Of a stretch of DNA of 59,756 bases, positions 3,849 to 47,600 are shown piece by piece (the first letter of the stretch is position 1; each line of letters opens with the position of its first letter). The translations under genes and the position numbers were made by a program. The DNA is from a virus (lineage: Duplodnaviria; Caudoviricetes), in the IMG/VR virus record IMGVR_UViG_3300029787_000037, positions 1-59,756 of that record; one strand, written 5' to 3'. The notes under the pieces were generated by a model that saw nothing but the letters and a program-made list of their open reading frames with translations, ran no database searches and was not told the origin of the DNA.

Positions 3849-3877
3849 TTGCGGATGTCCAGACAAAACAGTATACT
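3849..3877 (+). promoter_or_regulatory. Sigma70-like promoter for endolysin region, overlapped by AGACA sites
   Basis: TTGCGG-N17-TATACT. Confidence 0.5.
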
Positions 3878-3889
3878 CAGACATAGTTT

Positions 3890-4159
3890 TTGTCTGGCTT
3901 GTCTGGATTTTCGATGTTCAAAACAATCGTAGTTATTTTAGTTTTAGGACAGGGTCATATAACTCTGGACGATAGCCTTGGGCCTTATGACACAAAACAA
4001 GAGTGCTTCATGCGGGGGGCAGAAATGCTTCACTTTGCTACCACTAAGTTGCCAATAATCTGGGCAAACGTGGGATGCGCCGAAAGACTTAAAAAGGATG
4101 GTCAAGACAACAAGGAAGATACAGAGGAGGAGGATAAGGCAAAGAAGGTCGGCGTTTAG
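3890..4159 (+). CDS. Hypothetical protein with signal-like N-terminus (start probably ATG 3914)
   Basis: MFKTIVVILVLG...GPYDTKQEC...VGC. Confidence 0.55.
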   Translation: MSGLSGFSMFKTIVVILVLGQGHITLDDSLGPYDTKQECFMRGAEMLHFATTKLPIIWANVGCAERLKKDGQDNKEDTEEEDKAKKVGV

Positions 4160-7243: not shown

Positions 7244-7272
7244 AATATAGTATGAAATGCAGACAAGAACAA
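7244..7272 (-). promoter_or_regulatory. Putative hsp20 promoter
   Basis: TTGTTC-N17-TATATT on minus strand. Confidence 0.45.
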
Positions 7273-7277
7273 CGACT

Positions 7278-7335
7278 GACCCGCTGATTATTTGTCTGGA
7301 CCCGCTGATTATGTGTCTAGTTCCGCTGATTTATG
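7278..7335 (+). repeat. Three 21-bp-period repeats containing CCGCTGATT
   Basis: gacccgctgattatttgtctg / gacccgctgattatgtgtcta / gttccgctgatttatg. Confidence 0.85.
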
Positions 7336-7340
7336 GGAGT

Positions 7341-7679
7341 AAGTATGATTAAAACATTAGAACAGGTATGACCAAAGGTATGACCGATCATGGTATGACC
7401 GCCCTAAGTTGTTGATGTTGTTTGATGTGTTTGTCTGGGGCCGAAGGATTACAAATCAGCCGCTCTACCAACTGAGCTAAACCGGCTTATAGGTGAATTA
7501 TCAAACAAAACAACAACTTAGAGCAATCAAAGTCATAGTGTTTTCAACCACTTATATGACATCATATGACACCATATGACACCATATGACAACAAAAGTA
7601 TGACGGAAAGTATGACCGAAAAAGTATGACCGAGCATATCAAAAGTATGACCGAGCATATCAAAAGTATGACCGAGCAT
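7341..7679. mobile_element. attP: arm-type TATGAC repeats on both sides, two IHF-like sites, tRNA-Thr core
   Basis: GGTATGACC x3 (7364-7400); ATATGACANC x4 (7554-7593); AAGTATGACSG x5 (7595-7679); IHF-like sites near 7405-7417 and 7508-7520; adjacent to int 3' end. Confidence 0.88.
7447..7486 (-). other. attP core: 5' 40 nt of tRNA-Thr(TGT), not a full tRNA
   Basis: GCCGGTTTAGCTCAGTTGGTAGAGCGGCTGATTTGTAATC = acceptor 5' strand, D-arm, anticodon loop TTTGTAA; similarity stops 2 nt after the loop. Confidence 0.9.
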
Positions 7680-7696
7680 TTTTTTTCGGCGTCCGT

Positions 7697-8851
7697 CTAA
7701 ACTGCTATCTGTAATTCGATAGGCGCAGAAGCAGTCGCATCATGTAGGTCTTTAGATGCATGATTGGCATACTTCATAGTCTGGGATATGTCGTTATGCC
7801 CCATAATTTTTGACAAGTATGCTAGCGACATACCCCGCCTTAAACGGTGTGCCGCATAGGTGTGACGAAGATCATGGAAACGGAAGTCCGTCACCTTGGC
7901 GAACTCCTTAGTCTCTTGCCACGCACGTTTAAGGTCTTTGTAGTGTGTGCGGCTTCTTTGGTTCCAGAAGACATATGCATCAGGACACCTTGGTTCAGAC
8001 ATCATCCGCTTCAAGGTTGGTACAAATTCCTGGGGGACAGGCACTACTCTTTCTTTATTCCCCTTACATATCTCAGGGGGTAAGCGGAACTGATAACCAG
8101 AAGTCTGGTTTTCAATCTCCAGATAATCCCATCGATTAAGGAACAGTTCGCCTTGTCGCAGCCCCATCAAGAACGCCATGAGTATGATGTCATGCATGTC
8201 TGGGTTACAGCATTTCCGTGACGCTGCTAACAAACGCTCCATCTCTTCTAACTCTAAGAAGCGAGTGCGCTCAACAAGAGTGAAGTCTGACTTATCATAG
8301 TCTCTTATGGGGTTGGTCTTGATGACTGATGTAGTTCTCTTTGCATGTGTAAAGATACTACTCAGGGTTTGGAGATCCCCTAGTATGGTGCGACCTGTGA
8401 TGTATGAACCTTGTACGTTTTTGTCCAACCTCCGAGATTGGACATAAGCATGGATAGTTTCATTACTCATGTCCAAGAGGTTGACGCCACGAAACACAGG
8501 CAGAATTCGCCTCACAACCTTCATATGATCTTTCGCATACTTCTCAGACTTTGTGTTGAGTTCCTTAATATGCGTCAGATTTGTCAGGTCCTTCTCGGGA
8601 TGGAACCAACCAAACCTATCATGCAGAAAGTTGTATGCGGCATCCTCAAATAGGATCGCATCCTTCCTTAATGTGATAGTCCCTGCCAGATACTCATCAC
8701 GTTTTTCGATAGCCAGTTTCGCGGCCTCTATAGTAGAGGAACACTCCAATGGTATCTGAACAGGCTTACCTTGGTGTTTGAATTGGGAGTAGTATTTGGT
8801 TCCCCCTTTTCTTTCCCGCACCAGTAGGTACGGGTACTTCTTTGTAGCCAT
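7697..8851 (-). CDS. int: Tyrosine integrase (start probably ATG 8851)
   Basis: GLRQGEL (Arg), KGNKER, FRFHDLRHTYA (HxxR), MGH, TMKYA (Tyr); N-terminal arm-binding-like segment. Confidence 0.96.
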   Translation of the reverse strand: MATKKYPYLLVRERKGGTKYYSQFKHQGKPVQIPLECSSTIEAAKLAIEKRDEYLAGTITLRKDAILFEDAAYNFLHDRFGWFHPEKDLTNLTHIKELNTKSEKYAKDHMKVVRRILPVFRGVNLLDMSNETIHAYVQSRRLDKNVQGSYITGRTILGDLQTLSSIFTHAKRTTSVIKTNPIRDYDKSDFTLVERTRFLELEEMERLLAASRKCCNPDMHDIILMAFLMGLRQGELFLNRWDYLEIENQTSGYQFRLPPEICKGNKERVVPVPQEFVPTLKRMMSEPRCPDAYVFWNQRSRTHYKDLKRAWQETKEFAKVTDFRFHDLRHTYAAHRLRRGMSLAYLSKIMGHNDISQTMKYANHASKDLHDATASAPIELQIAV

Positions 8852-8862
8852 GCCACATCCTT

Positions 8863-9033
8863 TCAATTATGTAGTTCTGTCAAACGGTCACCATTAAAAC
8901 GCCAACCTCTTCCTACTCGAAAGACGATGCCTTCTGGCACCTTGTTTTCAGCAAGCCAGCGGTAGATGGTGCGCCTTGATAATTTTAGCTGATCTGCTGT
9001 TTCTTGTGGAGTTAATAAATTTTTAATTGGCAT
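8863..9033 (-). CDS. xis: Excisionase / HTH_17-type DNA-binding protein (56 aa; not in ORF track)
   Basis: MPIKNLLTPQETADQLKLSRRTIYRWLAENKVPEGIVFRVGRGWRF; AAGGAG RBS; immediately upstream of int. Confidence 0.85.
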   Translation of the reverse strand: MPIKNLLTPQETADQLKLSRRTIYRWLAENKVPEGIVFRVGRGWRFNGDRLTELHN

Positions 9034-9063
9034 AATTTACTCCTTATGTTTTAATAGTGGAAG

Positions 9064-9079
9064 TTAATGTTTAGTTAAC
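9064..9079. promoter_or_regulatory. CtrA-type binding site
   Basis: TTAA-tgtttag-TTAAC (TTAA-N7-TTAAC) between divergent xis and HTH genes. Confidence 0.6.
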
Positions 9080-9096
9080 CGGATGAGAGACGTAAT

Positions 9097-9363
9097 GTGA
9101 GTATCGATACAGACAGCGACTACGAGTATGTACATCCCGAATATTATGGAATTGATCTCTACCTCCACAAAATCAGAACATGGGCGCACAAATACGGGTT
9201 CTCCGCACACGGGCTAGCCAAAGCGTGTGATATGTCGCCAGGAACCTTACAGAAAATGTTCCGAAAAGAATGGAACCCAACCGTTAACACACTCGCGGCA
9301 CTTGAGTACTTCATGTACAATTATGAGAAGAAGATGGAGTGGAAAGCGAAGATGCAAAAGTAG
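9097..9363 (+). CDS. XRE/Cro-like HTH regulator (candidate repressor/Cro)
   Basis: 'SAHGLAKACDMSPGTLQKM...WNPTVNTLAALE'; divergent from xis-int. Confidence 0.7.
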   Translation: MSIDTDSDYEYVHPEYYGIDLYLHKIRTWAHKYGFSAHGLAKACDMSPGTLQKMFRKEWNPTVNTLAALEYFMYNYEKKMEWKAKMQK

Positions 9364-9721
9364 AGAGCATCTTCTCTAGATACCACTGAGCCTTTTTCAG
9401 ATCTTCCTCTTGGTTCTTATATTTATATCGCCAGATATATTTGATGCAGTTGCCTTGGCAATAGGAACGAAACCCATCGACATCTAATGCCGCTTCAATG
9501 GCATCGATACATTCAATCCCCGCCTGATTATAGTGCGGCGGGGAGTTCACCATGTCTTCTGGTGGGAGATCAAAAGTGTCTTCCACCTTGTGGCCTTTCG
9601 CACGGTGCTCTTCCCGTGCCTTTTGTATCATCCTAAGATAATAATCGTGACTGCGCTCCCCTTTGTAGGGGGTTGTGTCACGATCCACAGGTGCCGCCTT
9701 TTCCGGTAATGTCACAGACAT
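9311..9721 (-). CDS. DUF3310 / T7 gp1.7-like putative nucleotide kinase (start uncertain, 9688-9721)
   Basis: VNSPPHY..GIECIDAI...GNCIKYIWRY.YKN..EDLKKAQWYL. Confidence 0.88.
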   Translation of the reverse strand: MSVTLPEKAAPVDRDTTPYKGERSHDYYLRMIQKAREEHRAKGHKVEDTFDLPPEDMVNSPPHYNQAGIECIDAIEAALDVDGFRSYCQGNCIKYIWRYKYKNQEEDLKKAQWYLEKMLSTFASSLSTPSSSHNCT

Positions 9722-22717: not shown

Positions 22718-22809
22718 ACATCCGACATCCGACATCCGACATCCGACATCCCTCCTAGATAAACTTAATCCCAGACAAAAATTTGTCTGGCTTGTCTGGC
22801 TTGTCTGGG
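22718..22809. repeat. (ACATCCG)x~5 tandem repeat followed by AGACA/TTGTCTGG cluster
   Basis: Read directly: acatccg x4 + acatcc; ccagacaaaaatttgtctggcttgtctggcttgtctgg. Confidence 0.9.
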
Positions 22810-24720: not shown

Positions 24721-24840
24721 TTCTTGATCCTTTCGGTTGCTAAAAATTTGTCTGTCTGTCTGTCTGTCGTTTGATGCAGGTGCATCGTCATGTCCACCAG
24801 ACCCGATGTTCTGGGCCTGATGGACATTGCGTTGAACCCG

Positions 24841-26926: not shown

Positions 26927-27024
26927 TGTCTTGTCCTTTCGGTTGCTTTGTCTGTCTGTCTGTCTGTCTAGGGGTATTGTGTGAGGCCCCGCCGTGTATG
27001 CTGCGAGGCCCCAAGGCAATAACC

Positions 27025-28530
27025 CTATTGGCTGAAGGGAAGGTCCCCTTCGGCTTCGTTGGCTTCGCCTTCTTGATCCTTCGCGGCGGCGGCGTCCAAC
27101 TCCGCTTGGACCGCTTCGGTATCTTCCCCGCGAATTGCAGCAATCATAGCCGCCTTGTGGTTATGAATATTCCAGAGTTGCACGGCGGTCTCCTGATCAT
27201 CAGGACGGGCCGCACCGATAACGGTGGACATGAACGCATGTTCAGGGGACCAGCCGTCCTTGATGGCACAAACAAAGGGGACAAGGGACCGCATCGACGG
27301 GCCGATATCGGCGGCTTGGCCTTCGCGCTCTGCCTTCCTAAGTACGTTGGCGAATGAAATCACCTTCTGTGCAGCCGCCTTCGTAATGGCGGCGTCCTTG
27401 GACAGGATAGTGGCTTCCAAGTCCTTGTCTGGATAGTCCACCCGCTCCTTGAAGGCCCAACGGTCCATCATGCTTGTGTCCTGTACCTGACAGCCGCTGT
27501 ACTGGCCTGTCAGGTCCCCATTACCGTTGGAATTGTCACAGGCAAATATCAGGACATCTTCGGCAATGTTGACCACTTCGCCCGTCTCCAGGGTAAACTG
27601 GCGGTCATCAACGTCCAGCATGTTGAGGAATACGAGGTCCGCTGGATCTGCGCGGAAAATTTCATCTAAGACAATCACGGCCCCCCGCTGCTTAAGTGCA
27701 TGGGTGAGGGAACCATCATTCCAAACCGTGTCCCCGTTTTCGATACCCATCGCCCCAACAAGTTCAATCGGGTTTACTGAGCGGGAAAAATTGATCTTAA
27801 AAAATGGGCGTCCGGTCATGGCCGCGAATTGTTTGGGAGCGGACGTTTTACCGGACCCCTTCGGACCCCATAGCAGTGCGGTGTAGCGGCCCCCGCTATT
27901 GTAGCCGCCCAGGGTTGCGAGTGTTTGGGCGATCTGCGGTTGCCACTGATAGTGAGATTTCAGCGGCGGGGTCTGGGGACAATCGAAAGTCTTGATCACC
28001 CCGTTCAGGCCTTCAACGCCGAATAGGTCTGTGGCGTAGGCGTCCTCGCCCTGGTTAACAGGGATGGTTTTGAGCTTCGGCTTGATTGGCCCTGCATCCC
28101 TGTTTGGGGCGGCGGCGGTATTATCCACGACCACTTTTGGCGCACGGGCGGCGGCGATTAATTCGCCTATCTTTTCCCGCTTTTCCGCATAGCCCAGGTT
28201 GGCTATGGCGTCGATCTCAGCCGTGTCGGGATCAACCCCAACGGGTACGGGGACTGGCTCCGCAATCGGTGCAGCCGCGACCGCTGCGGCCACAGACTGC
28301 GGCGGCGTTGGGCGTGGCGTTGATGCTGAGGGGGAAGGGGCGGGGGAGCCTTTAAGGCGTCCAAAGTCTGAAGGATCAATCCCCAAGGCCTGGGCGGTGT
28401 CGGTAATTTCAGCAACCCGTAGGGCCTCTGGTTTGATGTGTTTGAAACGGCCTGAAGTGTCCGCTTTCATCCGGTTACGAATTTCCGCGAGAATGGCGGT
28501 TCGTTGGTCTGGGCTGTATTTGTACTCCAC
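27025..28530 (-). CDS. MoxR/CobS-like AAA+ ATPase
   Basis: WGPKGSGKT, IVLDE, ACDN..G.GD..G.Y, MDRW, SMR. Confidence 0.9.
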   Translation of the reverse strand: MEYKYSPDQRTAILAEIRNRMKADTSGRFKHIKPEALRVAEITDTAQALGIDPSDFGRLKGSPAPSPSASTPRPTPPQSVAAAVAAAPIAEPVPVPVGVDPDTAEIDAIANLGYAEKREKIGELIAAARAPKVVVDNTAAAPNRDAGPIKPKLKTIPVNQGEDAYATDLFGVEGLNGVIKTFDCPQTPPLKSHYQWQPQIAQTLATLGGYNSGGRYTALLWGPKGSGKTSAPKQFAAMTGRPFFKINFSRSVNPIELVGAMGIENGDTVWNDGSLTHALKQRGAVIVLDEIFRADPADLVFLNMLDVDDRQFTLETGEVVNIAEDVLIFACDNSNGNGDLTGQYSGCQVQDTSMMDRWAFKERVDYPDKDLEATILSKDAAITKAAAQKVISFANVLRKAEREGQAADIGPSMRSLVPFVCAIKDGWSPEHAFMSTVIGAARPDDQETAVQLWNIHNHKAAMIAAIRGEDTEAVQAELDAAAAKDQEGEANEAEGDLPFSQ

Positions 28531-28686
28531 TTTTTATCTCCTAGTCTGTCTGTTTTGGTTCTGTCATAGGCTCTGCCCACGGGCAACGCCCAACACCAAT
28601 ATATTCGCGTTCGCTGTATAAAACAAGGGCTACATGCATTTTTTACAGGGGCCTTATGTCTGATACCAATGTGCAGGGCCTCAGAG

Positions 28687-28925
28687 AGTATGACGGCCCG
28701 CCCCCCGGTTTCTTACATCGTCCAGAAAACTTTTATTTTCCGCGCCAGACAGACAGACAGACAAGGCCCCGCCCCAGACAAACGGCCCACAGACAGACAA
28801 GGTATGACCGAAAGTATGACCGCCCGCCGCAGCCCGCCGCGCAGCCCCCGTCCCGCCTCACTATCCCGCCGTGGCCCCGCTGATTTCATATCAGCCGCCC
28901 AGACAAATCGAACACTTTGTCTGGC
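28687..28925. other. Second att-like site: Int arm repeats, symmetric core and AGACA cluster
   Basis: AGTATGACGG (28687), GGTATGACCGAAAGTATGACCGCCC (28801-28825), CCGCTGA-TTTCATA-TCAGCCGC (28877-28898). Confidence 0.7.
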
Positions 28926-29098
28926 CCTGGCCCACATCGACCAGAAGACACTCTGGCACCCCAGACCTGATCTCCGCGCCGCCCGCGATCCGCCCTGAAC
29001 CCAGTGCTTACGTTTTTGAGGGCTTAAACACGTTGTCTGAAAACACTGTTTTTAAAAATTTTTTTATATTATATTGTTGTCTATGGTCTGGAGGATCT

Positions 29099-29605
29099 AT
29101 GGCTAGACGAATAGACAAAAAGCCACCTAAGCATTTGCGGAAGATGGCGGCATTTAACCAAGAGATTTCAAAGATTGAACAAGAAGACATGCTGTTTCAG
29201 CACCCGTCCTTCTTGGGAAATCAACGGCAGTTTATTGATACGTTATATAAAGAGCTACCCGCCCTAGCGGATCGCTTGGTCAGTTATATGTCCGCTGTTC
29301 CAGAGCGTCATGTCAGCGCAAATGGCACGATGCAGTTGATGATCCCTGAGAAAGCCGCTCTTACAGACGGGCAACTCCAGCTTTTTAAGATGATCTTACA
29401 GAAAGGGCTACCGAACCAGCAGCCTGTAAATATGAACGGCGACCAGAGCCAAAAGACGGACGGGAAAGTCCACATCACCATCAACCAGTCTGGTCCTGAG
29501 ATAGACTTTGACCAGAGTGGGGAAGTAATACAGGGGGTCCAACAAGGTCGGGCAAAACAGGTGGGGACCCTGACGTTCAAGAAGCCCGAGGTTCTCAAGA
29601 AGTGA
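29099..29605 (+). CDS. Putative terminase small subunit (ATG 29099)
   Basis: GGAGG RBS; directly upstream of and overlapping terL. Confidence 0.55.
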   Translation: MARRIDKKPPKHLRKMAAFNQEISKIEQEDMLFQHPSFLGNQRQFIDTLYKELPALADRLVSYMSAVPERHVSANGTMQLMIPEKAALTDGQLQLFKMILQKGLPNQQPVNMNGDQSQKTDGKVHITINQSGPEIDFDQSGEVIQGVQQGRAKQVGTLTFKKPEVLKK

Positions 29606-30921
29606 GCCAAGAGGTAACCTTTGAGGCGCATCACGGGCAACAACTAGTCCTTGCGGACGAACATCGTTTTATGACCCTGGTATGTGGACGGCGTTGGGGT
29701 AAGGATCACCTAGCTTGTATTAAAATCCTCTCTCATAGCTTGTCTCATGTGTCTCCTCGCGGCGGTAAAATCTACGCTTGGTTAAATCCAGTCTATAATC
29801 CGCAAGGGAAAGAGAGCTTCCGTGTCTTTCGGACTTTTGCGGAGTCCGGTGGCTTGGTTCAGAAGTGCATAGAAACCCCACCAATGGAGATACGACTAAT
29901 AAACGGAGACAAGGTTGTCTTCTTTTCGGCAGATCAACCGGATAACTTACGGGGTGGTCAGTATGATGGGGTCATAATTAACGAGGCGGGGCTTATTGGG
30001 GACCTTGAAGATCTATGGTCTGGTCCTGTCGCTGCTATGTTGTTGGATAGAGCGGGGTGGGCTTGGCTACAGGGGACCCCGAAAGGGAAAGGACCCCTAC
30101 ATAAATTCTTCCTTCGCGGCCTTGTAGACAAATTAGACAACGGTAAACCTAATCCTTGGAAGTCTTACCGTTTCCCCACCAAGACAAATCCATTTATTCC
30201 CGCCGAAGAACTGGATCGTCTCAAGGACGAACTACCGGAGGATATGTTTCAGCAAGAATTCCTTGCTGAATTCCTTGATAGTGGTGGTGCAGTCTTCAGA
30301 GGCTTAGATCGAATGAGGGCTAATAGTGAAAACACTCGTATTTTACCTCAAAGCGATATGTGTCGAGTTGGTGTCGATCTTGCTAAACACACTGATTTCA
30401 CTGTTGCTGTTGCTTTGGACCCTGCCAGCAATGTTATTGGCTTTGATCGTTTTAACAATCTTGACTGGAATATCGTCACCACGCGGATTGAGAGGTTCTG
30501 TTCACGCTATAGGGGAACGGTGGTCCTTGATGCCTCTGGAGTGGGCGATCCGATCTACGACAACCTTGCGTCAAAAGGCTTGGCTATTCGACCAGTTAAG
30601 TTCACGAATGAGAGAAAGACCCAGATGGTTCAAAATCTCATGCTCCTTATTGAAGAGGGGATAATGCGGATACCGATACCTGATGGCTCCACTGGTATAG
30701 ACAATTCCACGGAACATCTTTGGCGTGAACTAGAGGCTTACAGCTATAACATCACTGCCACTGGTCGTATTCGTTACGAAGCTCCGCGAGGCTTCCATGA
30801 TGACTGTGTAACTGCCCTCTTCTTGGCTGCATCTGAGTTGGCTCCCCAAATGTCAGGTCATCATATGTTTAATGAATTAGAACTCTCCCGCGAAATCGGA
30901 CAGGCAAGCCACGGGTACTAG
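29602..30921 (+). CDS. terL: Terminase large subunit
   Basis: CGRRWGKD, NLRG, IINEA, GTPKG, FQQEFLAEF, GVDLA..DFT, LDASGVG, HDDCVTAL. Confidence 0.95.
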   Translation: MSQEVTFEAHHGQQLVLADEHRFMTLVCGRRWGKDHLACIKILSHSLSHVSPRGGKIYAWLNPVYNPQGKESFRVFRTFAESGGLVQKCIETPPMEIRLINGDKVVFFSADQPDNLRGGQYDGVIINEAGLIGDLEDLWSGPVAAMLLDRAGWAWLQGTPKGKGPLHKFFLRGLVDKLDNGKPNPWKSYRFPTKTNPFIPAEELDRLKDELPEDMFQQEFLAEFLDSGGAVFRGLDRMRANSENTRILPQSDMCRVGVDLAKHTDFTVAVALDPASNVIGFDRFNNLDWNIVTTRIERFCSRYRGTVVLDASGVGDPIYDNLASKGLAIRPVKFTNERKTQMVQNLMLLIEEGIMRIPIPDGSTGIDNSTEHLWRELEAYSYNITATGRIRYEAPRGFHDDCVTALFLAASELAPQMSGHHMFNELELSREIGQASHGY

Positions 30922-30929
30922 ACAAAATC

Positions 30930-30958
30930 TAGACAAAAACAATAGAAAAGCGTATATT
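30930..30958 (+). promoter_or_regulatory. Promoter upstream of portal operon
   Basis: TAGACA-N17-TATATT, within AGACAAAATCTAGACAAAA shared with 36175. Confidence 0.55.
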
Positions 30959-30998
30959 TTTGTCTGAGTTAACTTTTTTGTCTGGGATTTATTTTTCT

Positions 30999-44668: not shown

Positions 44669-47600
44669 TGGCTGAGATGAATGATCAGTTGTTTAGCAAC
44701 CCTACAAACAGGGATGCGGTAGACAGTCTTAACCAAGCCCAGCGCGATATGATGGACTTGACGGCGAAGCCGCCTAAGACGATGGACGAGATCCGTAGTT
44801 TTATGGCTCCTCAGCGCGGCATGTTTGGGCAAGAACAACCATCTCAAATGTTATCTGGCCTTGCTGACATTGCAGCCCAGTTCCCGAATGATGCGCCCCT
44901 CGCACCGGAAGGGCAGAACCATAACTTGTCTGCTGATACGGATAGTTTCACAGATAGCTTTGGTGAGGCTTTCTCTCAAGGGTGGGCGGATGTGCATTTT
45001 GGTGCATCTCTTATTACGGGAGATGACGACACCAACATGATGTCGTTGGAGCAAAAGTTCCAACGCATGAAGGATGGTCTGGATATACCTCCTGAGAAAT
45101 GGACACCGGAAGCGGAGACCTTTAGCGAGGGCTTAGGTCAAATGTTTACGGGTAAGCACCGCTTCTTTGACACCGACTACTGGGGCAACTTTGCTGGGGG
45201 AACTGCCCCAAGCATTATGACAATGCTTACAGGTGCTGGTATAGGTGCTGGGGGTGGAGCCTTGGTCGGCGGCATCGGCGCAGTACCTGGCGCGATTGGT
45301 GGTGGTGTCGTCGGTTCCGGTAGCGGTGTAGCTTTACAAACCCTTGGGTCTACCATGACCGAAGCCTATAAGGCTTACAGAGAGCAAGGTAAATCTGTCA
45401 AAGAAGCGTTTCAGATGGCGAGGTCTGTCGCCAACGTAGACGCTATGAAGTCGGGAGCGATTGCCAGTATTGCTACCTTGATTGCCCCTGCCCGTGTTGT
45501 GGCGGGATCGGCTGGAAGTATGGTCCCACGCCTGACTTATGCGGCACCCGCTGGCGGTACTACAGCCAAAACATTAGGCGCACAATTTTTACAACAATCT
45601 TTAGTTATTCAACCAAGTCTGGAAGTTAGTGATGTCGTCAGTTCTAATAGTATTGCTGCAAATTCTTTTGACCCCAATCGTACTTTAACCCAAGGCTCCA
45701 TCGATGCCTTTGTGGGTAGCGTCTTTTTTGATCTACCAACAACGGCTGGCGGTGTCGCCGTTCAGTATGCGAAGAGACGTAGACCTCTTGGTGAAGATCG
45801 ACAGATCGAATACAAGCCAGCGTTTGATGACCCAGAGGTTGAGACCGAGGCACCGCCAGAGGCTAGCCCGACCTTAGCCCTCCCTGATTACACGCCTCGT
45901 TTTAATCCCGTCCAACAAGAAGACGGTAGCTGGACTATCGTAGACAAAGATGAGGCCCCAGGTCCGAAGAGTGCGTTCATTGCACCTGAGACCTACCAGA
46001 TGCTGAGTGTGAGGTTAAGTGAACTCTATAAGATTCAGACAGCCGCCGTTGAAAAAGTAAACAAGGCGAAAAACCCGACTGAGCAAGCCCTGGAGAAGAT
46101 CGAAGAAACCCGTCAACAAATCCAGACAATCCTCGACCAGATGGAAGGGAAGGTTCAGCCTGTAGACACTGCTACTGATCCAGAGCTTATCTTCGATACT
46201 GAAGCACAGGCACAAGAGGCCGCTGACAGTCGTAATGAGTTTGCTGACTCCTCATGGAAATCTCCATACTTCCCCGACAGTAAGAGCGGTAGAGCACAGT
46301 TTGTCCAAGAACAGATAGAGCGCATCACCGCACTGGACGCACGTAACAGAGAGCGTCAACAGACTTACACGGGTAGTGAGAAGGTAAACACAGCCATCGG
46401 TTTCTTCCGGTATCTCGGAGAGGCAGACAGAATTATCGCTGAGATAGACAGTCTGCCAGTCGAACAACGTAACACTGCAAAGAACCAATCTCTCTACGCT
46501 GACGCCAAGGAACGATTGGCGTTACTCAAGATGATCATGGACCCTGTCCAGAATGTGATGATCCCTCAATTTATCTTTGAGACGAAGGGTACGTTCTATC
46601 GGGTGCAGATGGAGAACGGACGACCAGTTCGTCCTACTAATCCAAAGACAGGTGCGGTTATGCCAAACCACATTACTGTCTACGACCCTGCATCAAAGAC
46701 AGGTGTTCGGAATGTCGCTGTTACAAGTGGCGACTTGTCAGACAGTGGTGTCCCCGTCCCCACAAATATGCTGACCACGGCTGATGTGTACGCACGGTTA
46801 AAGGAAGCAAAGCGTAGGTATGAACAGACGCTTCTACAGATTGAAGACCAGACTGATCTGACAGCGGAACAAGCTACCCAGGCAGAAGCTGCCGAGACCC
46901 GCGAAGCAGATGCAGCACAACGCGAAGGTTTCCAAGCAAAGACATCCGAGATCAGGGACCGACAAGATCGTGCGGAGATCGGAGAGTACCTACGCGATCA
47001 AGCTGGTGAGAACGAAACGATAGCTTTGGATGATAGGTCACCAGACGCACCACGGACGGCAGACCCTGCAATACTGGAAGAGGCAGCGGCTCCAAACGAG
47101 TGGGCTACGGCAGAAGTAGACCAAGGTCCTCAAGCTGAGATGACGGAAGCTGACATCAAGTTTGCCCGTCAGACTGTGGTGGATCGGGTCTTGGCTTTTG
47201 TCCCCGAGGAAAGCCGCTCCCGTGTTCGCAAAATCTTAGAGATGTGGGCAGATGCCTTGGGGCCAGAGTTCAACTCTGTCCGAGTTATGGACATTGCAGA
47301 GTGGATCGCCCAGGTAAGGCCCGATACTCCCGCTGGAACCGCCGCTGTATTCCACCAGTTTGTGAATGGAATGGACGGTAAGCTAGAGCGGATCATTGCT
47401 CTGAGTTCTGACAGGGATACCACTAGCCTACTCACCGACTTCACCCACGAACTGGTTCACCTGGCAGTACAGCTAAAGAAGCTACCCGAAGCTGGGATGT
47501 TGGATTGGTATCGTCAGCTACCGTCAGACAATTACCACAAGGCGTTTATTGAGAACGATCCCGTCTATAGCCAAGAGACCGAAGCCGTTAAGGCCGAAGA

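Follow-up and report, generated by a model that had tools for sequence, protein, structure and literature searches.

Introduction

The attL and attR sites of phage lambda are half-sites that belong to a heterobivalent integrase system. In each, inverted half-sites flank a 7-bp overlap to form the core, and arm-type sites lie on one side only, approximately 55–85 bp away; the arms are bound by an N-terminal domain of lambda Int. Segall and Nash are said to have described recombination between two attL sites, the "bent-L" reaction. In phage P1, Cre-loxP cyclises terminally redundant DNA. Here, loxP combines symmetric half-sites with an asymmetric spacer and lies near the packaging genes; Cre works without arms and has no part in integrating the phage.

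P4 Int reportedly regulates its own gene through arm-type sites. Arm-type sites are likewise used outside recombination by the KplE1 integrase IntS, which is autoregulated (PMC2951348). In those two systems the arms are the att site's own and lie over the integrase promoter. Apl of phage 186 and Cox of P2 bind both att and a divergent promoter region, using direct repeats about one helix turn apart (PMC7498355).

The DNA analysed here, referred to as the window, is the whole 59,756-base genome record of a marine phage. It contains a candidate second integrase site, called site 2 (positions 28687–28925), which lies 21 kb from attP and beside the terminase genes. Site 2 resembles lambda attL and attR in its inverted half-site core, 7-bp overlap and one-sided arms, and the window integrase is likewise predicted to have an arm-binding N-terminal domain. 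In contrast to attL and attR, site 2 is not an integration product: it lies inside the free phage genome, its half-sites are both of the bacterial (attB) type and its spacer is private. With loxP it shares symmetric half-sites, an asymmetric spacer and a position near packaging genes, and a recombinase that circularises incoming DNA is the putative counterpart of Cre; unlike the situation in P1, one integrase would here serve two insulated sites. The Apl and Cox sites are excisionase (RDF) sites with no core mimic and no conserved arm-to-core geometry, whereas site 2 is a candidate Int arm-plus-core composite. It also differs from the IntS and P4 cases in being a separate locus: it lies 19.8 kb from the start of int and faces terS, the putative small terminase gene, so that its arms are not over the integrase promoter. 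In the literature surveyed, no arm-plus-core integrase site beside terminase genes, co-varying with the integrase, was found described.

The Phage Genome

The record, from IMG/VR, has a completeness rating of 100%. Positions 1–98 have the same bases as 59657–59754, the copy stopping two bases before the contig end, and the record is a closed circle though it is classed as linear. This 98-nt overlap is compatible with repeat-ended or permuted virion DNA, but is not proof of either. Two related genomes, G001 and G003, are circular permutations of the window record.

The genes for DNA polymerase A, primase, helicase, ribonucleotide reductase and a CobS-like AAA+ ATPase are on the minus strand. 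The plus strand encodes the small and large terminase subunits, an SU10-type portal, the capsid protein and very large virion proteins. The large terminase, TerL (29602–30921, plus strand), matches phrog_2 (1.2e-35) and is at most 32% identical to that of any cultured phage, none of which is closely related to the window phage. It is preceded by terS (29099–29605, plus strand; 168 aa), which has no family match and is assigned from its position before TerL and its conservation in relatives. The capsid protein has its nearest cultured relative in Roseobacter phage CRP-810 (43% identity), which is placed in another family (PMC11288001). A brief look at CRP-810 revealed no site comparable to site 2, and cultured phages gave no DNA match to window 28300–29300.

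Site 2 lies within a 570-bp region that separates two divergent operons: the leftward early/replication operon, whose first gene is the AAA+ (MoxR/CbbQ, CobS-like) ATPase (27025–28530, minus strand), and the rightward terS/late operon. The region was recovered in other studies as well. A 268-nt contig from one of these is identical to window 28826–29093, and an 874-nt contig from a third study is approximately 90% identical to window 28167–29039, with 87 differences. The 22 public runs listed for this sequence are all stored as contigs, a form in which molecule ends and rare recombinants do not show; in four of them compared with the window, neither joints nor ends were seen.

The Lysogeny Cassette and Its attP

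The lysogeny cassette (7251–9368) comprises attP, a tyrosine integrase, an HTH_17 excisionase and a small HTH protein. The attP core, GAAGGA-TTACAAA-TCAGCCGC, is at 7443–7463 (plus strand). On the P side, it is preceded by three arm-type sites, GGTATGACC (7365–7401, plus strand), whose GTATGAC units start 83, 71 and 56 bp before the spacer, and more distally by three direct CCGCTGATT repeats 21 bp apart (7281–7331, plus strand). The latter are copies of the core half-site motif and go unmentioned in the preliminary description of this DNA, which was made from the sequence alone. The P' arm (7554–7674, plus strand) consists of four ATATGACA repeats followed by five AGTATGAC(C/G)G arm-type sites.

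Window 7447–7486 is the reverse complement of positions 1–40 of tRNA-Thr(UGU), and among 401 sampled Alphaproteobacteria genomes, 21 contain a 31-mer of this tRNA with one mismatch or none. One host tRNA-Thr equals the phage sequence over all 40 positions, identity stopping inside the anticodon loop. In the tRNAs inspected, the anticodon stem of the host attB reads GCTGA or ACTGA-TTACAAA-TCAGC. The attP thus holds the 5' 40 bases of the tRNA and not the usual 3' part, and integration at such an attP would mean that the phage provides the 5' half of the tRNA together with the DNA upstream of it. A 5' tRNA half is also found in the attP of the tRNA-Leu lineages (G003, G004, G006 and G007), and the attP of G005 holds the 3' part of tRNA-Trp.

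The integrase gene (7697–8866, minus strand; likely start ATG at 8851) encodes a protein with a PF00589 match (9.8e-26). Its R232, K263, H326, R329, H330, H352 and Y361 are invariant in all six aligned integrases, which completes the R, K, H-x-x-R-H, H, Y set. Residues 1–92 lie outside every sequence match to solved catalytic domains. For this region, a structure model built from a 6-sequence alignment (mean pLDDT 69) predicts three strands (9–35) and a helix (40–57) with pLDDT of 80–87, and a fold search with the model ranked full-length lambda Int (1z1b_A) third. The integrase is therefore predicted to carry a separate N-terminal arm-binding domain. Next to it is the gene for an excisionase-like HTH_17 protein of 56 aa (8863–9033, minus strand; 1.1e-10). 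The whole cassette, that is attP, int, xis and the gene for an 88-aa HTH protein, is a swappable unit and is missing in G001, where approximately 260 bp (46789–47048) stand in its place.

Close relatives of the integrase were not found in IMG/VR, nor was the exact 21-mer arm pair. Host relationships are hinted at by L061:2821–3235, the end of a Rhodospirillaceae MAG contig, which has a complete tRNA-Phe, then a P'-like array and then the 3' end of an integrase gene. This array contains three ATGACA-type repeats and four GTATGACCG. The stretch is 74% identical to window 7507–7744 and hints at the host clade of the window integrase type. The MAG G016, which has a related P' arm array, gave neither a tRNA-Thr match nor TerL. 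As an arm motif, the pair AGTATGACCGAAAGTATGACCG is widespread among unrelated elements (metagenome contigs L062–L067). Two such pairs flank a tRNA fragment in L065, the motif being found in L062 and L064 as well, and a triple lies between tail-fibre-like ORFs of a 132-kb contig (L063/L067).

Architecture of Site 2

The arm motif of attP recurs three times in site 2, which also contains the only exact GCTGA-N7-TCAGC palindrome of the genome. The distal arm-type site, AGTATGACGG (28687–28696, plus strand), is a 10-mer identical to attP 7597–7606 and is located approximately 197 bp before the site-2 spacer. The other two copies form a pair with a 12-bp period, GGTATGACCG-AA-AGTATGACCG (28801–28822, plus strand), in which GTATGAC starts 82 and 70 bp before the spacer. 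A cluster of seven YAGACA/(CAGA)n repeats (28746–28800, plus strand) lies immediately 5' of the pair; its position is conserved in the family and the motif occurs genome-wide. The pair is separated from the core by 54 bp of GC-rich DNA (28823–28876) which, by reading of the sequence, contains four CCCGCC units in steps of 10–20 bp. By eye, no IHF-like consensus was seen in 28823–28876, in contrast to the P-arm spacer of attP. All strings quoted in the preliminary description are in place: GGTATGACCGAAAGTATGACCGCCC at 28801–28825, the palindrome at 28877–28898, 54 bp past the pair, and, 21.4 kb from site 2, the attP strings AGTATGACGGAAAGTATGACCG (7597–7618) and GGTATGACCGCCC (7392–7404) and the attP core.

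The core-type palindrome CCGCTGA-TTTCATA-TCAGCCGC (28877–28898) is an arrangement of inverted core-type half-sites around an overlap within the usual 6–8 bp, with the spacer at 28884–28890. In its half-sites it reproduces the tRNA-Thr attB anticodon stem. All eight bases of the right half are those of the attP core. The left half, GCTGA, is absent from the attP core and present in the tRNA, and the site-2 core does not duplicate that of attP. Compared with the tRNA-Thr attB, 15 of 17 positions are the same, and both mismatches fall in the spacer. Here, TTTCATA replaces the TTACAAA of attP and attB, a difference at two of seven bases that had been pointed out before and that our comparison bears out. 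No second TTTCATA spacer with core half-sites exists anywhere in the genome.

The arms are restricted to the left of the core (28687, 28801 and 28813), with none between 28898 and terS, so that the two-sided arrangement of a full attP is not seen. Site 2 is therefore a half-att site, like attL or attR, and is not attP-like. The core is abutted by an inverted repeat, CCAGACAAA-N8-TTTGTCTGG (28899–28924), built from the genome-wide YAGACA motif. Further on is a family-wide conserved box, GAACCCAGTGCTTACGTTTTTGAG (28997–29020, plus strand), which is found in the window and in 30 of 34 related loci and could be a packaging or promoter signal; from here, AT-rich DNA runs up to terS. A small gene (ORF 28669–28998) was considered for this region and set aside; the parts conserved in relatives are short boxes in AT-rich, non-coding-looking DNA.

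Motif Frequencies

The arm and core elements occur together at site 2 and match those of attP beyond chance, which upholds the initial designation as an integrase-type site. RGTATGACSG has 11 matches in the window where 0.35 are expected, a number reached in none of 100 shuffles. Of these, attP accounts for seven and site 2 for three (28687, 28801 and 28813), and one is inside the capsid gene (35382). The core half-site motif CSGCTGATW has nine matches in the window against 1.6 expected: four in attP including its core, two that form the site-2 palindrome and three elsewhere. Exact GCTGA-N7-TCAGC occurs once in 59.7 kb, at 28879–28895. The best local alignment of attP with site 2 scored 40, compared with 18.0 ± 2.1 and a maximum of 26 in 200 shuffles. 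The 17-mer of the site-2 core was found at six IMG/VR loci, all in unrelated coding DNA, and an Rfam search returned nothing near threshold.

The shared GTCTGG/CAGACA sequences of attP and site 2 were rejected as att-specific, YAGACA being present 218 times in the window against approximately 60 expected. This motif also flanks both the attP core and the site-2 core. Intergenic YAGACA/(CAGA)n clusters, direct or inverted, are found at 3860–3900, 22772–22802, 24749–24761, 26949–26965, 28544–28553, 28746–28794 and 30919–30979, and runs of (CAGA)3–4 lie just 5' of the ribosome-binding sites of several leftward genes. It looks like the binding motif of some family-wide factor.

Site 2 in Relatives That Carry an Integrase

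TerL searches of IMG/VR retrieved 34 related loci at first and 38 later. The window and 30 of the initial 34 loci share the conserved box (GAACC...TTTTTGAG), which anchors the region before terS, and the elements ahead of this box have a constant order. A YAGACA run is followed by two direct repeats, 12 bp apart and different in sequence between lineages, then by approximately 55–70 bp of DNA and a palindrome with a 7-bp spacer. Downstream of the palindrome come the conserved boxes, AT-rich DNA and terS.

An integrase and the terS-upstream region are both available in six genomes: the window, G003, G004, G005, G006 and G007. Their integrases fall into three classes with approximately 30% identity between classes, and the targets are tRNA-Thr, tRNA-Leu and tRNA-Trp. 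The composite site 2 is present in all six, and the arm motif flanks the core on both attP arms in the window and in G003–G007, including G005. The preliminary description had suggested asking whether the arm motifs co-vary at the two loci, and they do so in five of the six genomes, six genomes and three integrase classes being the full extent of this evidence. The site-2 pair matches the arms of its own attP at 20 of 22 positions in the window, 21 of 21 in G004 and G007, 17 of 21 in G006 and 18 of 23 in G005, each value exceeding all 300 shuffles; compared with the attPs of other integrase classes, only 11–15 positions agree. The exception is G003, where the pair agrees with its own arms at 13 of 21 positions by this ungapped measure and is not above the shuffles. 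Its second repeat, AGGACACAA, includes the GGACAC of its own arms.

From the start of each arm to the first spacer base, the window has 83/71 bp in attP and 82/70 in site 2, G005 has 82/70 in both, and G004 and G003 have 81/69 in attP and 80/68 in site 2. Thus, in each of the four genomes measured, site 2 and attP differ in spacing by no more than 1 bp. Three further lineages, represented by contigs without attP, have site-2 spacings of 81–82/69–70, giving distances of 80–82 and 68–70 bp across every lineage examined. The DNA between arms and core is unrelated in site 2 and attP.

The site-2 palindromes also tend towards the attB of the same phage. By hand count, the G005 core matches its own attB at 13 of 17 positions (CCGGT-CTGCCAG-ACCGT versus CCGGT-CTCCAAA-ACCGG of tRNA-Trp), and resemblance to the tRNA-Leu attB is weak in G004 (10 of 17) and G003 (9 of 17). 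In the G004 lineage the palindrome is imperfect, with four of six stem pairs. In the G005 lineage it is near-perfect and made of the genome-wide YAGAC motif, so that direction could be set only by the centre base and the arms.

Relatives That Lack an Integrase

The closest relatives by TerL (89%) are G001, which is rated 100% complete, and G002. Neither has a PF00589 match or an attP-int cassette, and neither has the pair or the palindrome at the homologous place. In G418, a more distant complete genome that also lacks an integrase, no pair is found in the approximately 200 bases available before the contig end; its two ends (L115/L116) share an element of approximately 75 bp, about 80% alike as judged by eye. 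In G001, two inverted arms of approximately 30 bp, made of GATGAC units around approximately 70 bp of AT-rich DNA (L009:1886–2012), are inserted between the conserved box and terS, and GATGACA clusters are found elsewhere in that genome too.

Fourteen related contigs end at most 3 kb upstream of TerL, and seven of these ends are 687–977 bp upstream, i.e., in the site-2 region. Two assemblies (L012 and L015) share one start position. This accumulation of ends could reflect physical ends, repeats or strain variability.

What Site 2 Probably Is and How It May Function

Three unrelated arm motifs and three tRNA targets are associated with one fixed geometry, and the site is lost alongside the integrase. 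Consequently, chance, a recent copy of attP and a protein encoded outside the cassette are all very hard fits. The small terminase, for instance, is conserved across the family and cannot follow an arm motif that changes, and a recent attP copy is difficult to hold when the stretch from arms to core bears no relation to its attP counterpart. On the strength of these sequence comparisons, site 2 is very probably a real half-att site, attL-like in build and kept by selection, that serves the lambda-type Int of this phage, and the integrase probably has a second job there.

What that job might be was also raised in the preliminary description, which favoured circularisation of the genome. In such a mechanism, Int would bridge arm and core at site 2 as in attP, and the different spacer would prevent recombination with attP or the tRNA. 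Tyrosine recombinases mostly require overlap identity (PMC2817482). Since overlap identity is generally required and the genome holds no other site with this spacer, only site 2 × site 2 exchange is permitted, in keeping with the insulation proposed earlier. Site 2 would then recombine with another copy of itself, as carried by concatemers or repeat-ended virion DNA, and this exchange would release the monomer circle needed for integration at attP; P1 Cre-lox is the precedent. Such a reaction would be useful to an integrating phage and needless for the integrase-less relatives, and the location beside terS would fit if site 2 lies within a terminal repeat or redundancy. Features that speak for self-recombination are the two strong attB-type half-sites, the 7-bp spacer at the place of the attP crossover, arms with attP geometry and the unique spacer. 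Against it count the one-sided arms, the imperfect palindrome of G004, the weakly attB-like half-sites of the tRNA-Leu lineages, the G005 core made from a genome-wide motif and the 13 of 21 match of the G003 pair to its own arms. In addition, precedents for a second locus are mostly regulatory (Apl, Cox and IntS), and integrase-less relatives replicate and package without site 2. Taken as a whole, the statement that site 2 is an Int site which also recombines with itself to give monomer circles is plausible from these features, but we place it slightly below an even chance. The more general form, in which one lambda-type integrase would act at two orthogonal sites, attP for the tRNA and a private, insulated, attL-like site that circularises DNA in a lox-like manner and is re-tuned with each cassette swap, is offered more tentatively still.

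The site type, the spacer difference and the co-variation anticipated earlier have therefore held up; a circularising role remains conjectural, and an Int operator is about as likely. In the operator reading, Int, with or without Xis, would form a docking complex at site 2 that represses or times late transcription, or the access of terminase to the conserved boxes, with no strand exchange. We regard this as a real possibility that nevertheless falls short of being the expected outcome. Site 2 lies between divergent operons, straight after a YAGACA cluster and approximately 100 bp before the family-wide boxes, and the co-variation with int-xis and the absence from integrase-less relatives suit docking equally well. 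There is precedent in Apl of phage 186, which binds att and the pR-pL region (PMC7498355), and in IntS of KplE1, which regulates its own gene (PMC2951348). However, these precedents are RDF sites or arms over an integrase promoter and not an arm-plus-core composite 21 kb from int. For docking alone, attB-like inverted half-sites and a 7-bp spacer placed exactly at the crossover would be unnecessary, yet these are conserved. A simple sigma-70 scan found no promoter overlapping site 2 where 1.0 was expected, and the likely promoter DNA (AT-rich, 29040–29090) is at least 150 bp away. A further idea is that the repeats are excisionase operators of the Apl/Cox kind, with the HTH_17 protein binding the 12-bp-spaced repeats, CSGCTGATW or both, at attP and the control region. 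In its favour, RDFs bind direct repeats spaced by roughly one helix turn (PMC7498355), co-variation follows the whole int-xis cassette, which moves as a unit, and not Int alone, and CCGCTGATT forms three direct repeats in one attP arm only. Conversely, GTATGAC lies on either side of the core in attP, as do the corresponding motifs of relatives, which is the pattern of Int arm-type sites and not the single-arm one of Apl and Cox despite the 12-bp repeats; the CSGCTGATW units of site 2 are inverted and coincide with tRNA-derived core sequence. An RDF operator is accordingly improbable.

Site 2 could instead be a by-product with no function, left behind when Int or homologous recombination exchanged DNA with attP in the past (gene conversion), or it could be a second attP. 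Recent copying could explain why the pair of G004 and that of G007 equal the P' arm pair over all 21 bases. This does not account for the DNA between arms and core, which is unrelated to attP although the spacing is held within 1 bp in three integrase classes, nor for the loss of site 2 together with the integrase. The preliminary description had listed a second attP for another host site among its alternatives, and this is now unlikely: P'-type arms are absent, and the spacer is unfit as a tRNA anticodon loop. In such loops U is obligatory at position 33 and a purine at position 37, and neither TTTCATA nor TATGAAA can serve. We consider the by-product explanation, in either form, to have little chance of being correct.

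Implications

The pair and palindrome of site 2 should predict the arm motif and tRNA target where attP is off the contig. For L011, the prediction is CGGGAA for the arms and, for the tRNA, an anticodon stem of the ACTGA/TCAGT type; for L036–L038, it is GGTGTCCC arms. Judged from its sequences, the family may provide natural examples of one integrase acting on spacer-insulated, orthogonal sites. If the docking reading is true, late functions or packaging would be coupled to the lysogeny decision or to completed excision.

More broadly, site 2 bears on two poorly understood questions: how temperate tailed phages that lack cohesive ends come by the supercoiled monomer circle for integration, and how integrase-bearing marine podoviruses without an obvious repressor couple lysogeny and late functions. 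Both would become directly testable through a second, conserved Int site where packaging and late genes are controlled.
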